DNA from: a virus | Taxonomy: Duplodnaviria > Caudoviricetes | IMG/VR virus record: IMGVR_UViG_3300032335_000635 | Coordinates: 1 to 30,417 of that record | DNA length: 30,417 nt | Strand: one strand, 5' to 3' | Shown here: in pieces, positions 1 through 17,326 of the stretch | How the letters are laid out: every line of letters starts with the position of its first letter | How positions within the stretch are numbered: the first letter of the stretch is position 1 | Notes under the pieces: generated by a model | The model's database searches: none | Seen by the model: only the letters and a program-made list of their open reading frames with translations | What the model was told of the DNA's origin: nothing | Made by a program: the position numbers and the translations under genes

Positions 1-226
1 CTCTCTGCGGCGTGTAGTGTCACAGCGTGTCACGGTCCCGTGCGGTATCAACAAAGACAAGTCCCCGTGTTTGTCCCGCTCGGGAACTGTCACTTTTCGA
101 CAGCTTCTTTCAGTAGCGGAGTGTGGCGGTTGGCATTATCGCGGTTTCGTAATAGTGGTGTTCGTCGTTTCGCGGCGGCTAGGCGTCGAATCTGCGGTGC
201 GCTATCTTGCGAGCGTGTGATTATCG

Positions 227-262
227 TGGGCTATACGGAACGGTAGAAACACTGGTTCTCAC
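227..262 (+). mobile_element. attI-like integron recombination site (crossover G/TT at 255-257)
   Basis: TATACGGAACGGTAGAAACACTGGTTCTCAC: AAAC(247-250)-N4-GTT(255-257) simple-site layout with no attC-type hairpin upstream. GTTCTCAC is the exact reverse complement of GTGAGAAC (547-554), the R'' box of the next attC. Confidence 0.6.
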
Positions 263-264
263 GT

Positions 265-591
265 TTACGGCTCGTCCCGCCAGTCGCACAGGTCGCACAG
301 CGGCAGACGGACGCCGTACCCGTTCTCTGCTGTCAGGTCTTCCGTAACGCCAACGTCCCCAAACCTAGACACCATGACGAGTTTGACCGTGCTGCCAGCA
401 GGAATGGGAATTTCCACTTCCTTGCTGTCTCGCAGGTGCAGCATCAAAACGTCGCGTTTCAGTGTCGCGTATCGGTGCGGCCAAGTTTCCGGCTTGTGCG
501 GCATCCAGCCGCGAGACATGGCATGGTGTTCGGCGGCGCGGTCGAAGTGAGAACCAAGCATTGGAGCAGACCCGTCAGCGTCCTGTTTCAT
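265..591 (-). CDS. cassette 1 ORF, hypothetical protein (108 aa, MKQDADGSAPMLGS...VMVSRFGDVGVTEDL)
   Basis: RBS GAAAGGA 7 nt before ATG at 591, both inside attC-A. The stop lies a few bp from the attI-like GTT, so the ORF fills the cassette. Confidence 0.7.
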   Translation of the reverse strand: MKQDADGSAPMLGSHFDRAAEHHAMSRGWMPHKPETWPHRYATLKRDVLMLHLRDSKEVEIPIPAGSTVKLVMVSRFGDVGVTEDLTAENGYGVRLPLCDLCDWRDEP

Positions 592-633
592 ATCAACGTC
601 CTTTCTCGGGCTGCTCAATGCAGCCGTTCTGTG
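547..633 (+). mobile_element. attC site A
   Basis: R'' gtgagAAC (AAC 552-554) ... GTT (626-628). Arms GCATTG[G]AGCAG[A]CCCG / CGGGCTGCTCAATGC pair with two extrahelical bases, the classic attC layout. Confidence 0.85.
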
Positions 634-638
634 GCTAC

Positions 639-962
639 TCAAAAGCAAAACGCCTGCGCCCATCTCAACGCCCAGTATGCCGCTTCGGCAACCTTCATCC
701 CGTTGCGCCTATGTGATCGGTATGCCCTGACGAAAACAACAGGAGCCGCCGCAGTTCTCAGAATCGAACCTCCGCACACCGCCCATCGCGGGACGGTTCC
801 GATGGCCTCTAGCAACATCACTTGCTGCCGGTGCGTGAGAGACTCAAACAATTCGCGGGTGGTGATTGCGGTCGCCATGTCATCCGGCCTGCCAGTGGAA
901 ACAACCCGCACAGAACCAAGCGATGCAACGGACGGCGGGTCAATGTCGTTTGGTGTTGTCAT
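639..962 (-). CDS. cassette 2 ORF, hypothetical protein (107 aa, MTTPNDIDPPSVASLGS...)
   Basis: ATG lies inside the attC-B loop and the stop lies just inside the cassette boundary next to attC-A R'. Confidence 0.6.
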   Translation of the reverse strand: MTTPNDIDPPSVASLGSVRVVSTGRPDDMATAITTRELFESLTHRQQVMLLEAIGTVPRWAVCGGSILRTAAAPVVFVRAYRSHRRNGMKVAEAAYWALRWAQAFCF

Positions 963-1000
963 GCCTTGCGTTCGCCGCTCCTGATCCTGCGTGTTCTCAG
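909..1000 (+). mobile_element. attC site B
   Basis: cacagAAC (914-916) CAAGCGATGCAACGGAC ... CCTGATCCTGCGT GTT (993-995). Its R'' CACAGAAC is complementary to GTTCTGTG at 626-633. Confidence 0.8.
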
Positions 1001-1102
1001 GGTGTCCCCAAACTCATGGCGCACACAGGGCGGTCGGTCAACGTCGTTCCGCTCCTGCTATCGAATGCTCTCCGATTGCTCGGCATATTGACCATCGAAT
1101 CA

Positions 1103-1198
1103 ACACCCTGAGAACCACGCGATGCAGCGGACCCGCGATGCCGCCGTCTGGTTGTAGTTTCGTCAGCGGTCGCGGGCCGCTGATCTCTGGCGTTCAGT
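1103..1198 (+). mobile_element. attC site C
   Basis: ctgagAAC (1113-1115); arms GAT[G]CAGCGG[A]CCCGCGA / TCGCGGGCCGCTGATC; GTT at 1192-1194. ACACCCTGAGAAC (1103-1115) is a perfect 13-bp reverse complement of GTTCTCAGGGTGT (993-1005). Confidence 0.88.
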
Positions 1199-1412
1199 GC
1201 AACAGGTTCACCAATTCGTGTGGCACCATCGCTCGCACCGCCTCCAGTGCGTGCGTCTCGTCCACGCCGGGCGAGCCGTGCTTCAGCCGGCCGCGACAGT
1301 GCTCGTCTATCAGCTCCAGGGCGATCAGGGCATCACGGCCCGCGAGAGCGTAGCGGTGCTCTCTATCGTCATCTGGGTCGCTCAAATCGAATCGGAGGGT
1401 GGCTGTTGCCAT
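1194..1412 (-). CDS. small phage hypothetical protein (72 aa, MATATLRFDLSDPDD...)
   Basis: Protein-like ORF directly preceded by a promoter. Its stop codon overlaps the R' GTT of attC-C. Confidence 0.8.
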   Translation of the reverse strand: MATATLRFDLSDPDDDREHRYALAGRDALIALELIDEHCRGRLKHGSPGVDETHALEAVRAMVPHELVNLLH

Positions 1413-1419
1413 GGGTCAG

Positions 1420-1447
1420 ATTCTACCGCCTTGCCTAGCAGGCGCAA
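1420..1447 (-). promoter_or_regulatory. sigma70-like promoter, probably producing a leaderless mRNA
   Basis: TTGCGC-16 nt-TAGAAT, then 7 nt (CTGACCC) to the ATG at 1412; no SD sequence. Confidence 0.6.
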
Positions 1448-1553
1448 TGCCGTTTTGTGTCCGGTTTGTCGGCCGTCATTGTGTGATGAATTCGCACCAG
1501 TTTTTCGTACCAGAAACGGTGCACAACTGGCCGATGTTGGCCGCAAGTTTGTC

Positions 1554-1783
1554 CGGTACGGCATCCTATTTCGCGGTTATTGCCCGTCAGGCAATCAGCC
1601 GGAAATGCCGTACCGACTCAACACTGGTGCAAGAGCGCACCGGCAGGTGTGCCACTGGGGCGGCCCACTCGTCGCCAAGCCGTTGTCGGGCTGCGTTACG
1701 TCTCGCCCCGACCCGCCGTCATCCGCTGGCTATGAGGGCAGCGTCCAGTTGGCCGGATGTGGCGTCCGACCGGTATGACGGCG
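1554..1783. other. non-coding cluster of inverted repeats / hairpins
   Basis: 11-bp perfect IR 1554-1564/1605-1615 with a paired interior; hairpins 1624-1643 and 1685-1712; 9-bp IR 1714-1722/1775-1783 enclosing two small hairpins. No convincing ORF. Confidence 0.5.
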
Positions 1784-1923
1784 AGCAAAGTGTTTTGTCC
1801 GTCTCTAAGGTGAAGAGCGTCACTATCGCGACTTGATGACCAGATACAACAGGCAAAGAGTCTGCAAAACGTCCCGCACCTCGCGGAGAAACTGCGTGTC
1901 GGTCAGCAACCACGCCAGTCCCG

Positions 1924-2424
1924 TCACGGTTGCAGCGACTCCCACAGCGCAATGTCAGCGGCGTAGATCAGCCTGACCGCCGCATCCTGCCCTGGCGTGA
2001 GCGTCGGCTTTTCGGCCTCGTCGCTCTCAGCAAGAATCGGGATCGGAAGCGTGAGGCCCAGCCACTCGGCACACGCCTGGAGCTGATCCTCAAAGCGGAA
2101 GTAGTTGGTAAAGGGTAGTTGAGGGAGCGCGCCGTACATCGGTGCGGCGATCTGCTCATCAACCGACAGTCCGTGCCTTGCAACCATAGAGCGGAATCGC
2201 TCTACAGGGTTGCGAACAATCACCGCAAGCGTCGCGCCCGATGGCAAATCGGCAGCGGATATCTGATCTTGCAGATACCGCGCCGGGTGCATTCCGCCCT
2301 CTTGCCACGCAGCGTGATTGCTTGGCTCAAACTGTTGCAGCCATGCGGCGACTATTGAATGGGAGCCACTGCGAGTTGCAAGCGCCAGATGCCGGTTGTT
2401 CGTTCCCTTCAAAATGCTGCCCAT
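1924..2424 (-). CDS. sulfotransferase-family (Sulfotransfer_2-like) protein
   Basis: 5'-PSB-like RSGSHS, 3'-PB-like IVRNPVERFRS and FRFED motifs. Confidence 0.6.
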   Translation of the reverse strand: MGSILKGTNNRHLALATRSGSHSIVAAWLQQFEPSNHAAWQEGGMHPARYLQDQISAADLPSGATLAVIVRNPVERFRSMVARHGLSVDEQIAAPMYGALPQLPFTNYFRFEDQLQACAEWLGLTLPIPILAESDEAEKPTLTPGQDAAVRLIYAADIALWESLQP

Positions 2425-2436
2425 GCGTGTGCCTTG

Positions 2437-3861
2437 CTATGTGAAGTAGAGAACCACAGCACCGGCGCCGCTCGGCGTGCCCGCGATGCTTAACCCGCCT
2501 GCCGCTGCAACGCCGCCGCCGCCAAGTCCCGCAGTGCGGGCAGGACCGAACTTCTGATCTGCGCCGCCGGAGCCGAACGCCGCTCCTGTCGCGCACGTTT
2601 CGCTTGTGGAGACGCCAGCCAGAGTGAGCGCCGCGAACAATTCGCTCACGTTCGTTGCAGGCAGGCGTCCGCACGCGGCCCTCGTTCCGTTGCCGCCGAC
2701 AGCGCCGCCGCTTTGCCCGTAATCCCCCCAGCCGCCGCTTGTACCAGCGCCGCCCGTAGTGCCGCCGTCGCCGCCTGAGAACGAGCCTCCAGCCGTCGTG
2801 CCGCCGCCGTTGCCGGTGATCGTCGTGCCTGAGTACGTGACGGTCGTGTTGGCTCCCGCCTGAGTGCCGCCTGTGCGTGCTGCACCGACGCTGTAACTCA
2901 CAGACGTGCCACCAGACACCGACCACGTTTTGAAAGCGCAGCCACCCGCAGCACCAGCAAGATTGCCGACGCTGCCACTGCCCACTGCCCACGCCTTCAT
3001 GCTCGTCGCGCCTGCGGGCACGGTGTACGAGGTGCCAGAGGTCAGCAGCACGGCGGCTGGCGTGAATGATGGCGCGGCGGGCGTCGATGCACCCAACCTG
3101 GCAGAAAGGTCAATGCCCGATCCAGCATTGTATAACGCTGTTACTTCCGCCTCAGAGAGCGCGCGGCTCCACTTCGCCACCTCGTCAATGTAGCCAGTGA
3201 AATACTCCAGAAACCCGGAGAACGAGCGGCGGCCGATGTTGAATTGCGTGGAAGTTGCGGAAAACGATTTGCCGCCAGCGCGTGTGGCTGTTGCCACCGA
3301 AGTGCCGTTTTCGTACAGCGTCACAGCGCCTGCGTTATTAACAAGCGTGTAGTGCCACCATTGGTTAATAAAACTGGCGTTGGATCTATTGGCAGGCGCT
3401 GTCGCAGTTATGAATGTGCCATCTGTATGAAAAATGTTTATGTCCACGCGATTCGCGGTGCCGACGCTATCAAACTGCACCCGGAAGCTGACTTCTCTGC
3501 CGCCAGACTCATCCTTGCCCATGACATGCTGAAAGCCTGTCGCGGTCGCCTGCGGAAACATCCACCAGCTCATCGACCAGTTGCCGTTTCCAAACTGAAC
3601 GTCTGCCCGGCTGGTAATGGAAAGCCATTCGGTGTTCGCCGCCGTGAACTGCCGGGCGTTGTTTACCTTGCCCGCAATGCTCGGCACGGTGTTATTGCTG
3701 GTGAGGTCGTTACCCCTGCCGCTGTTGTCCACCGCCGTCACATCACCAGAGGCAGCCGATTCATTCAAAGGCCAATAGGCCACAAGGCCGCTGCGGAGCG
3801 TCGGGTAGCGGAAGCCGCCAGAGGCTCGGGGCCGCAACAGTCTCGGGCTCATCGGGGACAT
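2437..3861 (-). CDS. LamG/concanavalin A-like domain plus Gly-rich C-terminal domain; probable virion adhesion or decoration protein
   Basis: GLVAYWPLNE, DNSGRGN, WWHYTLV, FTGYIDEVAKWSRALSEAEVTALYN (LamG-like), followed by TSGTSYTVPAG...GAGAVVLYF Gly-rich module. Confidence 0.85.
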   Translation of the reverse strand: MSPMSPRLLRPRASGGFRYPTLRSGLVAYWPLNESAASGDVTAVDNSGRGNDLTSNNTVPSIAGKVNNARQFTAANTEWLSITSRADVQFGNGNWSMSWWMFPQATATGFQHVMGKDESGGREVSFRVQFDSVGTANRVDINIFHTDGTFITATAPANRSNASFINQWWHYTLVNNAGAVTLYENGTSVATATRAGGKSFSATSTQFNIGRRSFSGFLEYFTGYIDEVAKWSRALSEAEVTALYNAGSGIDLSARLGASTPAAPSFTPAAVLLTSGTSYTVPAGATSMKAWAVGSGSVGNLAGAAGGCAFKTWSVSGGTSVSYSVGAARTGGTQAGANTTVTYSGTTITGNGGGTTAGGSFSGGDGGTTGGAGTSGGWGDYGQSGGAVGGNGTRAACGRLPATNVSELFAALTLAGVSTSETCATGAAFGSGGADQKFGPARTAGLGGGGVAAAGGLSIAGTPSGAGAVVLYFT

Positions 3862-8704: not shown

Positions 8705-9218
8705 GGCCGACGAACAACGCCCGCCCCTGCGTGTCGGTTGTCACCGTGTGCCGCTGGAAGCGTCTGGCCACGGCGTCCTGCGACGAGCTCGACAGCTGCT
8801 CCCAGTCGTGGATCGCCAGCATGCTGGTGATGCCAGCCGCCGTCAGGTACTCGGGCAGCACCGCGTCGCCGTGGGCTGCGTCGTGGAAGATCAAATCCCA
8901 CGAGTCGAGATGCAGCTGGCAATCCCGCAGGAACCGCCCTGCGTCATCGGCCACCGGCTGAATGTTGGCCACGCCAAGCGTCTCCCAATACGCCACGCGG
9001 CTGGCCTCAGGCATCGTGTCGCAGAGATCGACGCTCACGATGGTGGACTCAGGAGCGGACATCGCCATGGCAGCCGTCGAGATCCCGGCATGGCTGCCGA
9101 GCTCGAGCACGCGCCACTCCCGGCCCTGCACGATCTCGCACAGTTCGGCGATGTGCTCTCGCGCCGTGGTCATGTGGTGCGAGTAGTCCACCGTTGCCAG
9201 GTACTCTTGCCACGTCAT
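8697..9218 (-). CDS. class I SAM-dependent methyltransferase (Methyltransf_24-like)
   Basis: VLELGSHAGIS motif I, IVSVD, DLIFHDAAH and AIHD. Confidence 0.85.
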   Translation of the reverse strand: MTWQEYLATVDYSHHMTTAREHIAELCEIVQGREWRVLELGSHAGISTAAMAMSAPESTIVSVDLCDTMPEASRVAYWETLGVANIQPVADDAGRFLRDCQLHLDSWDLIFHDAAHGDAVLPEYLTAAGITSMLAIHDWEQLSSSSQDAVARRFQRHTVTTDTQGRALFVGHA

Positions 9219-9619
9219 GTGATCCGCACCGTAGTGCGCCCCTCCGTGCCGTAAGACTTTTCCACCACGAGCCGCCGCACTTGCGTGTCATCGACCCAGG
9301 CCACGCCGTTGAGAGCGTCGAGCACAGCCTTGGCGACGTTGTCCACGTCCTGGCGTGGGATCTCCGGTGCCGTCTCCTTCACGCCTCGCTTCGTCCGGTG
9401 GTACTTGGGCCGCACGAAGACCGCGTCGATTACCACGTTCACCATGCCCCGGCCCGCCGTCGCCCCGGCCTTCATCGCTTCAAAAGCAATCGCACGGCGG
9501 TACGCATGCACTGGATGCTTCTGCGGCACGTACGCTCGAGCGAATCCGCCACGAGTTGAGACGCGCGGCCGTGGCTGTGGCACAGGATCGCCAGGCACAG
9601 AGAACGTCAGGGCCATCAT
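9215..9619 (-). CDS. rusA: RusA-family Holliday junction resolvase
   Basis: PGDPVPQPRPR N-terminus; DVDNVAKAVLDALNGVAWVDDTQV catalytic signature. Confidence 0.9.
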   Translation of the reverse strand: MMALTFSVPGDPVPQPRPRVSTRGGFARAYVPQKHPVHAYRRAIAFEAMKAGATAGRGMVNVVIDAVFVRPKYHRTKRGVKETAPEIPRQDVDNVAKAVLDALNGVAWVDDTQVRRLVVEKSYGTEGRTTVRIT

Positions 9620-12920: not shown

Positions 12921-12931
12921 CCCTTTCGTGT
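12921..12931. repeat. 11-bp direct repeat CCCTTTCGTGT, copy 1
   Basis: Identical to 13805-13815; abuts the stop codon of the recombinase gene. Confidence 0.7.
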
Positions 12932-13797
12932 TAAACCAGCGCGGGAGTTTTCGGCGTGTTCTTCCTGAGCTGCGACCAATCGCAATATGCCTGCTCAAAC
13001 AATGCTGGCGACCGATGGCCGAGGTGCAGGCGTCCGGCACCTGGCCGCTCCATCTCGCAGTGAGTCGCACCGCTTCGCCTGAGCCACTTCGAAGATCCGC
13101 CAACGCCAACGCCGTCGAGCAGCTGCCGCATGTGCCTCATCGCCATGCGCCGGCCGCAGGCCCATCCGAGGATCGTGCCGTTTGGTGACGCGGCCAGCAT
13201 CCCGTCGATCGCATCGAGACAAGCGGGCGTCAGCGGCCGCGACAGCGGGTCGCCTGTTTTCGATTGCGTCCACGACAGCGTGTCGCCGTCTAGGTGCTCG
13301 CGGCTGAACGACATCACGTCGCCGAACCGTGCCCCGCACTCGTAAGCGAGCAGCACCCAGCAGCGGAGAAACAGCCCGAGGTCTGCACCAGACCGCAGCT
13401 TGCGGCCGTTGTGTGCTTTGGTGGCCTCAATCAGCAGCCTCAGCTGCTCAATCGTCCACGCTTTTGTCGGCTTCTTTCGGGCCTTTACACGCATCACTCC
13501 GCGCGGGGCCTCGTCAATCAGGCCTGTTTCGTAAGCCCAGCAGTACAGCGTCAGCAGGATCGTGCGTTCTGACCGCACGGTCGTGCTCTCAAGCTGCTGC
13601 GCCCGGTCACGCAGGTATGCGTTCACGCGCTCTACGCTAATGCGGCCGCATCGCTCCGCGATCCTGAGCACGTTGCTGGCGTAATGCGTAGAGACGATCC
13701 GCTCGGCCAAGTACTTGTCGGCAACGCCCTTGAAGTTCAGGATCGCGTCGGCCGTTGCGTCTGCGACGCGACAGGCCAGGTTCTTTCTTCGTGCCAT
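12931..13797 (-). CDS. tyrosine recombinase no. 2
   Basis: YECGARFGD (R), QSKTG (K), KWLRRSGA (HxxR variant KxxR), HLGH and FEQAY (Y). Start MARRKN. Confidence 0.85.
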   Translation of the reverse strand: MARRKNLACRVADATADAILNFKGVADKYLAERIVSTHYASNVLRIAERCGRISVERVNAYLRDRAQQLESTTVRSERTILLTLYCWAYETGLIDEAPRGVMRVKARKKPTKAWTIEQLRLLIEATKAHNGRKLRSGADLGLFLRCWVLLAYECGARFGDVMSFSREHLDGDTLSWTQSKTGDPLSRPLTPACLDAIDGMLAASPNGTILGWACGRRMAMRHMRQLLDGVGVGGSSKWLRRSGATHCEMERPGAGRLHLGHRSPALFEQAYCDWSQLRKNTPKTPALV

Positions 13798-13804
13798 CGT
13801 TCTT

Positions 13805-13815
13805 CCCTTTCGTGT
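13805..13815. repeat. 11-bp direct repeat CCCTTTCGTGT, copy 2
   Basis: Identical to 12921-12931; contains the recombinase RBS, 7 nt from the ATG. Confidence 0.7.
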
Positions 13816-13958
13816 GTATTGGCGGCGTGTCGTGCCGCATCCGGCCGCTTTACCCTGGGAGGCAGAGCTGCGGCTGCAGTGGTTACGCGCCACTCCTGCT
13901 TGGCGGCGAATGCGGCCCAATGCTCAGGCCGCTGTGGCAATCGCGTGCCGGCTGTGAT

Positions 13959-16438: not shown

Positions 16439-17326
16439 ATGCTGCTGAGGGACTTTCTGAATGACCGTTACGCGGTGCTCCACAACCTGAAGCCGCGCAC
16501 CGTTGAGATCTTCGGACACTCTATCGACCGGCTGCGGGACTTTCTCGGGCGCGAGCCTGAACTAGCTGATTTTGACGATTTGACCATCGGCAAGTTCCTG
16601 CGGTGGCGGGCCGTCACGCCGCACCGTGGGCGGATTTGTGCCGCCGCCAGCGTTGCCAAAGATAAGGCCCACCTGGTCAGCCTGTGGAACGCTGCCGCCC
16701 GCAAGCGGCTTGTGGAGGTGTTCCCAGACCTGCCACGTGGCATCGTCAAGGTGCCGCACCGCTCGCCGTCTGCTTACACCGTGGACGAGATCAGCCGCAT
16801 GGTGCAGCAGGCCAGGCGGCGGTCAGGGCTGATCGGCCCGTGCCCGGCTCCGTGGTTCTGGACAACGCTGCTGATGTCGAACTGGTACACGGGCGAGCGG
16901 ATCGGGTCGCACCTCGAGACGCGGTGGGAGCAGGTCGACACGGCCCGCCGCACGATCACGTTTCTCTCCGAGCACCGCAAGGGGCTCGGGCGAACGATTA
17001 CACGGGCGATCACGCCGCAGCTGGCGTCCATGCTCCAGGCCGGGCGGCGAGCCTCTGACGATCTTGTGTGGCCCTGGACAGACCACAGGGCAGCGAACTC
17101 CATCTACCAGCGGATTAGGTACATCTGCCGGTCAGCGGGCGTGAAGCCGCGAGGCTTCCATGCAATTCGCAAAGCGGCCGGGTCGTACCTGAAGGCTGCC
17201 GGAGGTGATGCCACGGAGTTCCTGACGCACAAAGACTCAAAGACGACGCGGGATCACTACCTAGATCCCAAGATCGTTGGCGAGGCGTCGGCCCTGGACT
17301 TCCTGCCACCGCTCGACATTGGATGA
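16439..17326 (+). CDS. tyrosine integrase no. 1
   Basis: WYTGERIGS (R), HRKG (K), FHAIRK (HxxR), LTH and TTRDHY (Y); GGGAGG RBS. Confidence 0.9.
   Translation: MLLRDFLNDRYAVLHNLKPRTVEIFGHSIDRLRDFLGREPELADFDDLTIGKFLRWRAVTPHRGRICAAASVAKDKAHLVSLWNAAARKRLVEVFPDLPRGIVKVPHRSPSAYTVDEISRMVQQARRRSGLIGPCPAPWFWTTLLMSNWYTGERIGSHLETRWEQVDTARRTITFLSEHRKGLGRTITRAITPQLASMLQAGRRASDDLVWPWTDHRAANSIYQRIRYICRSAGVKPRGFHAIRKAAGSYLKAAGGDATEFLTHKDSKTTRDHYLDPKIVGEASALDFLPPLDIG

Follow-up and report, generated by a model that had tools for sequence, protein, structure and literature searches.

An integrase-less cassette array in a phage genome, with an attI-like module and inverted genes that probably start inside attC sites

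We analysed a phage record of 30,417 bases over its whole length (referred to as the window) and find that it carries an attI-like module followed by three cassettes, with no IntI and with genes on the bottom strand of their attC sites. We consider it likely that this is an integrase-less array in which the loops of two attC sites start translation of the cassette genes and an IntI of the host acts in trans. The sites have regular attC anatomy and a single orientation, their reading frame is biased, the ends of the cassettes match, and the array keeps a fixed polarity towards the attI-like motif. A host enzyme would recombine the sites, the phage would transcribe the array, and ribosomes would initiate within two of the sites.

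Results

Three attC sites delimit three cassettes

The long ORFs of the window lie mostly on the minus strand, and an HK97-type capsid, a RecT-family protein, a beta-clamp and two tyrosine recombinases are encoded. Three attC sites (A, B and C) of the Planctomycete type are present, with AAC (R'') and GTT (R') cores, paired L''/L' boxes and spacers. The features discussed below are:

113-261, plus strand: attI-like module, with an L box at 243-249, a 5-nt spacer at 250-254, the crossover at G255/T256 and TTAT-type direct repeats upstream
256-626, plus strand (crossover to crossover): cassette A, gene inverted; its ends form an 8-nt inverted repeat (255-262 with 547-554)
548-632, top strand plus: attC-A, R'' at 548-554 and R' at 626-632; start-bearing subtype
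265-591, minus strand: ORF A, 108 aa, its first 12 codons within attC-A
599-605, minus strand: GAAAGGA, a Shine-Dalgarno-like (SD) sequence on the edge of the attC-A loop, 7 nt ahead of the ORF A start codon and predicted to be largely unpaired
627-993, plus strand: cassette B, gene inverted; ends complementary over 8 of 9 nt (626-634 with 908-916)
910-999, plus strand: attC-B, R'' at 910-916 and R' at 993-999; ATG in the loop, SD displaced, weak hairpin
639-962, minus strand: ORF B, 107 aa, its first 15 codons within attC-B
994-1192, plus strand: cassette C, 110-nt body; 13-nt perfect inverted ends (993-1005 with 1103-1115)
1109-1198, plus strand: attC-C, R'' at 1109-1115 and R' at 1192-1198; start-less subtype, strong hairpin
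1194-1412, minus strand: ORF D, 72 aa, an ordinary phage gene with its stop codon in R' of attC-C
12931-13920, minus strand, and 16439-17326, plus strand: divergent tyrosine recombinases

We assign the plus strand as the attC top strand because the extrahelical G and A lie on its left arm (in attC-A and attC-C), a polarity found equally in chromosomal-array sites; the strand logic follows the available text of PMC5027507. The minus strand is ruled out as top strand by the extrahelical bases, the chromosomal arrays, the side of the attI-like module and the join to ORF D, and matched cassette ends are uninformative on this point. A two-arm attC pattern picked out attC-B and attC-C and nothing in 100 shuffled versions of the sequence, and a structural attC scanner stayed at 0 hits over 334 kb of shuffled DNA. 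With three attC sites and no IntI the array is a CALIN, and it is not a complete integron, as no intI gene adjoins it. Neither an Rfam search of the window nor a search of the GenBank phage collection with window 180-1220 returned a match. The plus-strand ORF 436-984 had no Pfam hit and is treated as a shadow of the minus-strand genes.

Cassette genes are inverted relative to bacterial integrons

In a canonical cassette the gene lies on the top strand with attC at its 3' side, and the viral arrays depart from this rule. Among the matches listed, a bottom-strand ORF of at least 60 aa had its start within or close to 77 of 82 viral and 18 of 37 genome sites; top-strand ORFs of at least 100 aa ending at R'' were found at 11 of 82 viral and 21 of 37 genome sites, again among the matches listed. 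The genome loci come largely from records named Planctomycetota (31 of 37), and in six chromosomal regions adjoining IntI hits a top-strand gene ends near R'' at 26 of 39 sites. Since bottom-strand ORFs dominate at the viral sites and top-strand genes at the chromosomal ones, the phage genes are inverted with respect to the same site family in bacteria. Homologues of ORF A and ORF B confirm the minus-strand proteins of the window. The preliminary description had remarked that canonical attC sites lie 3' of the ORF; here they lie 5' because the genes occupy the attC bottom strand, and not because the sites have been displaced.

The chromosomal integrons of Planctomycetota (L427-L432) have the attC family in common with the window (84-87 nt, AGAAC/GTTC cores, extrahelical G) and are adjoined by IntI hits, above the TIGR02249 cut-off in 3 of 5 genomes. 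They differ in that their genes lie on the top strand and that bottom-strand SD+ATG is present in 0 of the 39 attC sites of the six regions.

An attI-like module borders the array

The array extends leftward to an attI-like site at 243-261, which the preliminary description had not noted. An attI comprises L and R boxes with optional direct repeats and sits, on the top strand, at the 5' end of its array; the spacing of the boxes in attI1 was used for comparison. Window 113-255 is 81% identical over 143 nt to the array end of another viral locus (L067). We collected 75 array ends on the top-strand 5' side and dropped 10 as undetected attC; most of the 63 distinct others carry an L-like box at -13 to -7, a 5-nt spacer and TTAT-type repeats, although a few of the 63 still look attC-like. 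A scan with the attI-like motif alone gave 32 loci, with attC within 900 nt after the motif in 21 of 24 and before it in 0 of 31; at least 10 of the 32 contigs were already in the earlier set, so that the scan is only partly independent. The attI direct repeats DR1/DR2 are taken from the accessible part of PMC8946536. Motif, position and polarity fit an attI, and the module may function as one.

attC-C joins ORF D exactly at the R' crossover (G|TT). We found 38 loci related to ORF D, and 10 of the 37 homologues examined end in the same TGAAC, followed by non-attC sequence resembling window 112-84; ORF D is likely the target into which the array was joined. The left border of the attI module, compared with the empty alleles, has no clean GTT crossover, and no empty attI, running straight onto the target gene, was identified. 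Two loci without detected attC (L439, L442) nevertheless open with a typical cassette end.

Several further features were seen around these borders. TTCAGT occurs at 107-112 and at 1193-1198, at both ends of the inserted attI-plus-array block. In several of the loci L433-L464 the far side of the attI-like module abuts a gene start resembling that of an ORF D relative or of window ORF 9215-9619, which we take to be RusA-like. A second family of short repeats, of the ACACGCCGCAG type, is found in window 1-112 and in L271-L307, after ORF D homologues and the array; these repeats often lead into a purine run and an ATG and are possibly another start-associated repeat.

Cassette ends match and leaders are exchanged

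Across 91 adjacent viral pairs (among the matches listed), R'' agrees with the R' at the other end of the body at 2.80 of 4 free positions, against 1.40 of 4 for the R' of its own site and 1.42 ± 0.11 for shuffled partners. In the window the cassette ends are complementary over 8, 8 of 9 and 13 nt, the match by which integron cassettes are recognized. The body of cassette A lies between other sites in L001-L003, and a contig of run X3 matches it from exactly 255; that of cassette B (625-933) has other neighbours in contigs of runs X2, X3 and X6. Cassette C has no other copy among the viral loci, and contig pieces cover it in runs X2 and X6. Joints in run contigs with unknown letters between were left out.

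Body families were built from DNA-level pairs, protein-level comparison being too loose (some families share only a C-terminal module). Among 158 complete bodies we found 10 near-identical pairs in 6 families, of which 4 vary in the 5' site and 4 in the 3' site; start-bearing bodies retained start-bearing sites and start-less bodies start-less ones. In the ORF A family the leader switches within 2 nt of R'', which is the cut position of top-strand recombination in the text available from PMC5027507. By adjusted mutual information, the spacer beside R'' follows the subtype of the site (0.47) and not the body (0.08). In runs X2 and X6 the leader switch of ORF B falls within the left arm, where identity stops at 933, and not at R''. 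Leader exchange is not expected from bottom-strand recombination alone; either top-strand recombination or short-homology exchange may account for it.

These data bear on the possibility that the sites give starts but now spread by homologous recombination of their arms through the phage RecT, like the PeSL elements of T4, with an integron origin that is historical and an IntI that is inactive. We regard this as unlikely. A RecT-family protein is encoded in the window, both flanks of the bodies change about equally often, one leader switch falls inside the left arm, IntI is absent nearby, and start-bearing hairpins are weaker than start-less ones (predicted energies of -14.7 vs -23.7 kcal/mol), all of which homologous exchange would accommodate. 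It needs, however, neither the body-specific matching of R' and R'' nor the retained extrahelical bases, both of which site-specific recombination predicts. A conserved attI-like site always on the same side, the join to ORF D at G|TT, and orientation, which was never mixed within one of the 255 loci with sites (among the matches listed), are likewise expected from site-specific recombination.

attC sites as putative translation-start modules

The preliminary description placed the ribosome-binding site and ATG of ORF A inside attC-A and the ATG of ORF B inside attC-B. Both placements are borne out: GAAAGGA (605-599) and ATG (591-589) lie 7 nt apart within 548-632, and the ATG at 962-960 falls within 910-999. 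GGT TCT is the reverse complement of R'' in all three sites, and the three left-arm peptides (GSAPMLGS, PSVASLGS and GSAASRGS) translate as it had claimed. Because attC-C lacks an ATG in the GSAASRGS frame (frame 0), this peptide cannot be counted as a third N-terminus. The proposal that attC supplies the ribosome-binding site, the ATG and about 15 residues is supported as regards the start and some 12-18 residues (12 before GS in A, 15 in B) and is not borne out by the poor SD of attC-B or by the start-less attC-C; a textbook SD+ATG is present in only 1 of the 3 window sites. In attC-B the SD candidate is AGGAG at 982-978, 15 nt from the ATG, while all 17 members of the attC-A subtype have an in-frame SD+ATG. 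Nor does each cassette carry its own start, as had been proposed: a frame-0 ATG is absent from attC-C and from all 95 of 95 mini sites, and in 4 of 6 families one gene body is found behind different leaders.

ORF A has no hit in Pfam, NCBIfam or PHROG, and a protein search at E ≤ 0.001 returned 19 proteins including itself (18 relatives). In the alignment, distant relatives begin about 9 residues before a conserved HxM motif; this motif lies upstream of the first internal Met of ORF A, and no start codon lies between R'' and that Met. Homologues without attC start on their own at the same place (L004, L005 and L007; 7 of 9 loci viewed), and L003 carries the ORF A body with the same junction and a different attC leader. 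In L004 the gene after the ORF A homologue opens with TDRDHFA, as does the attC-free ORF A homologue, which represents another shared N-terminal module. For ORF B no family hit exceeded the cut-off, and the protein search at E ≤ 0.001 returned 32 proteins; 24 aligned sequences (23 of the 32 hits and the window protein) show several different attC leaders on one body. In cassette C, frame 0 of the bottom strand runs without a stop from R'' as far as a TGA at 999-997 and contains only an internal Met. Window 997-1113 (minus strand), which ends at the usual -3 stop behind the start-less attC-C, may be silent or may be an internally started gene of 32 aa.

We determined the frame of SD+ATG across related sites. 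Pattern scans for attC gave at least 140 viral and at least 122 genome loci; filtering by stem and length removed 8 of the 146 viral sites and 59 of the 120 genome sites, after which 135 and 61 distinct ones were left. An SD+ATG with no stop in between was found in frames 0/1/2 at 110/17/0 of the 135 viral sites and at 4/1/0 of the 61 genome sites (both among the matches listed), and three of the four frame-0 genome sites look phage-type by eye. The preliminary description had named a lack of frame conservation and starts downstream of R'' as observations that would speak against it, and the 110 of 135 listed viral sites that keep the frame point the other way. Frame 0 is open for at least 40 codons in 113 of 129 cases, against 46 and 55 (among the matches listed). 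Phage-type start-bearing attC sites also lie in the bacterial genome bins L187, L241 and L262, which are prophages or mis-binned contigs and could point to the host.

Two more scans and a structural scanner enlarged the set to at least 349 distinct sites in 255 of 296 loci. Here, SD+ATG lies in frames 0/1/2 at 179/29/1 of 239 long sites and in frame 0 at 0 of 95 mini sites (both among the matches listed). Mini attC sites, which measure 44-53 nt and have hardly any terminal loop, occur commonly in these phages (L001-L003, L309-L377). The sites are related, so that the independent count is about 16-19 subtypes and not hundreds. Sorted in this way, 39 long subtypes comprise 20 without a conserved SD+ATG, 15 with frame 0, one with frames 0 and 1, and three with another frame. 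The ATG lies 10, 12, 13, 15, 17 or 18 codons before R'', that is, at six offsets in one frame. In the 12 larger start-bearing subtypes the frame is kept in 184 of 184 members tested, and in 6 subtypes there are 1-nt length variants upstream of the ATG.

The strongest point for a start module is the comparison of start-less with start-bearing sites. Of 137 bodies that follow a start-less site, 77 contain an SD and start of their own, spread over the frames as 28/25/24, whereas only 11 of 169 bodies behind start-bearing sites contain an SD-preceded ATG or GTG in the first 25 codons. Frame 0 reaches the far end in 65 of 81 complete bodies behind a frame-0 start and in 11 of 53 behind mini sites. 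Cassette bodies of 349 and 265 codons (L049:2001 and L115; L018), which by eye we take to resemble DNA methyltransferases, begin inside attC leaders.

That the genes start downstream of R'', with leaders that are gene-caller extensions through a purine-rich, stop-free attC bottom strand, has in our estimate only a slight chance of being correct. The left arm is open in all three frames, leader residues are under little selection, and this copy of ORF B could alternatively start at its internal Met (878-876), the position from which P0024 is called; attC bottom strands are purine-rich in the available text of PMC5027507. Mere extension does not account for a site family that in bacteria has SD+ATG in only 4 of 61 listed matches and in none of the 39 IntI-adjoining sites, nor for an ATG at six offsets in one frame. 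Many ORF B homologues have no Met from the GS of R'' to the conserved core, and conservation of ORF A begins upstream of its first internal Met. A role of attC as a putative translation-start module is well supported by these comparisons.

Leader peptide and hairpin

The preliminary description also pointed to a shared N-terminal peptide and to possible gating of translation by the attC hairpin. In the leader loops, variation at codon positions 1/2/3 is 0.10/0.17/0.17. With 102 synonymous and 199 non-synonymous changes, a function of the peptide is doubtful. Leader variation lies little above drift, and the shared residues therefore most likely reflect the conserved DNA arm; protein-level selection on the leader appears weak at best.

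attC-C is predicted to fold into a full hairpin (about -26 kcal/mol as DNA; RNA z -3.32). In the minimum-energy fold of attC-A the L stem forms and the R pairing is absent, and the attC-B hairpin is weak (RNA z 0.12). The SD is predicted to be open in eight subtypes, including that of attC-A (unpaired 0.56-0.82), and buried in the L stem in two common subtypes (unpaired 0.05 and 0.20), so that the predicted gating by an mRNA hairpin would fit the two common subtypes and not the eight others. Stop codons are found no further than 18 nt from R' at 325 of 347 sites (among the matches listed), mostly at -3 or -8, and coupling to the upstream gene is therefore the likely way in which a buried SD would be opened. 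The accessible text of PMC8876359 describes termination-reinitiation of short top-strand ORFs at attC; deletion of attC in class 1 arrays had mostly small effects in that of PMC11511950.

Discussion

We found no IntI in the window with an IntI model and none in 1.65 Mb of viral loci by tblastn with three full-length queries, and for this reason we infer an IntI enzyme rather than observe it. It is very improbable that a recombinase of the phage itself moves the cassettes, be it one of the two window tyrosine recombinases, which have relatives in 5 array-bearing loci, or a small one in related phages, since neither window enzyme matches IntI, by the IntI model or by tblastn with three full proteins, the distance to the array exceeds 11 kb for both, and attC sites of this family accompany IntI in planctomycete chromosomes.

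In the mechanism that we propose for an array served in trans, the host, probably a planctomycete with its own integron, would supply IntI. The enzyme would recombine the folded bottom strand at R' and add cassettes at the phage attI, which would be the far end of the phage transcript. This transcript would come from ORF D and read the bottom strand of the array; each upstream gene would stop at R', and the ribosome would re-initiate or load at an SD+ATG 25-45 nt further on. Two cassette designs would coexist: (i) a start-bearing attC with a headless frame-0 gene and (ii) a start-less attC with a gene that has its own ribosome-binding site. Leaders would be exchangeable between gene bodies, as nearly all end in the same frame at R'', and the leader of 12-18 residues would be a tolerated by-product of the DNA site.

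A more far-reaching version is possible but doubtful. Here the phages would own half an integron, consisting of a phage-specific attI and phage-only backwards cassettes, would rely on the host for the integrase, and attC loops would have become interchangeable start modules with a common reading frame at R'', top-strand recombination at R'' moving starts of differing strength from gene to gene. If this were true, R'' recombination could replace a native start and turn an ordinary phage gene into a cassette, and cassette genesis would gain a traceable route.

Phage CALINs, that is, attC clusters without integrase, were published by Qi et al. 2023 (PMC9892861), and phage attC was recombined there with attI1. 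These arrays likewise combine several attC sites and small genes in a phage in which IntI is absent. They differ from the window in a typical bacterial layout, and the available text reports no bottom-strand genes, starts in attC or frame locking; it describes an attI in a Shewanella prophage and no recurrent attI-like site in CALINs of virulent phages. Recombination sites with translation signals, as found here, are also represented by ORF-11 in attI1 and short ORFs in attC (PMC8876359, PMC11511950, accessible parts): termination-reinitiation at the short ORFs links neighbouring cassettes, and attC hairpins can lower downstream translation. Those are separate top-strand ORFs coupled to the gene that follows, whereas the window attC would contain the bottom-strand start and N-terminus of the gene itself.

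Two phage systems resemble the arrays in other respects. PeSL elements of T4-type phages are stem-loop repeats with an SD and a start codon at their end; they lie on either side of small accessory genes and shuffle these via mini-circles; in the text available from PMC2839356 they have promoters and lack R/L boxes, matched ends and leader coding. A scan of window 1-2500 gave no sigma-70-like promoter match, and hence neither a promoter of the PeSL kind nor a candidate Pc directed into the array on the top strand, although it may not cover the promoters of this host. SAS/ESAS of cluster K mycobacteriophages place a repeated SD motif and an inverted repeat upstream of unrelated genes and, in the accessible part of PMC3203893, are not attC-like and have neither cassette ends nor a coding leader. 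Our literature search, which covered listings and the openings of abstracts outside subscription journals, found no published description of the inverted layout with starts in attC.

Integrons are usually regarded as devices of bacteria, and of late as reservoirs of defences against phages. In this case phages seem to maintain an insertion site and cassette pool of their own, with genes read from the phage transcript, and such cassette genes would be antisense to Pc if a host integron captured them. Recombination, ribosome binding and coding would all be served by one stretch of DNA. Many unrelated phage proteins have in common an N-terminal tag with [SG][AV]xxxGS at its end, which derives from DNA and can mislead protein clustering. 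The origin of new cassettes is described as an open question in the available text of PMC4889954. Genes that occur both with a native start and as attC-started cassettes allow a direct comparison that bears on cassette genesis.
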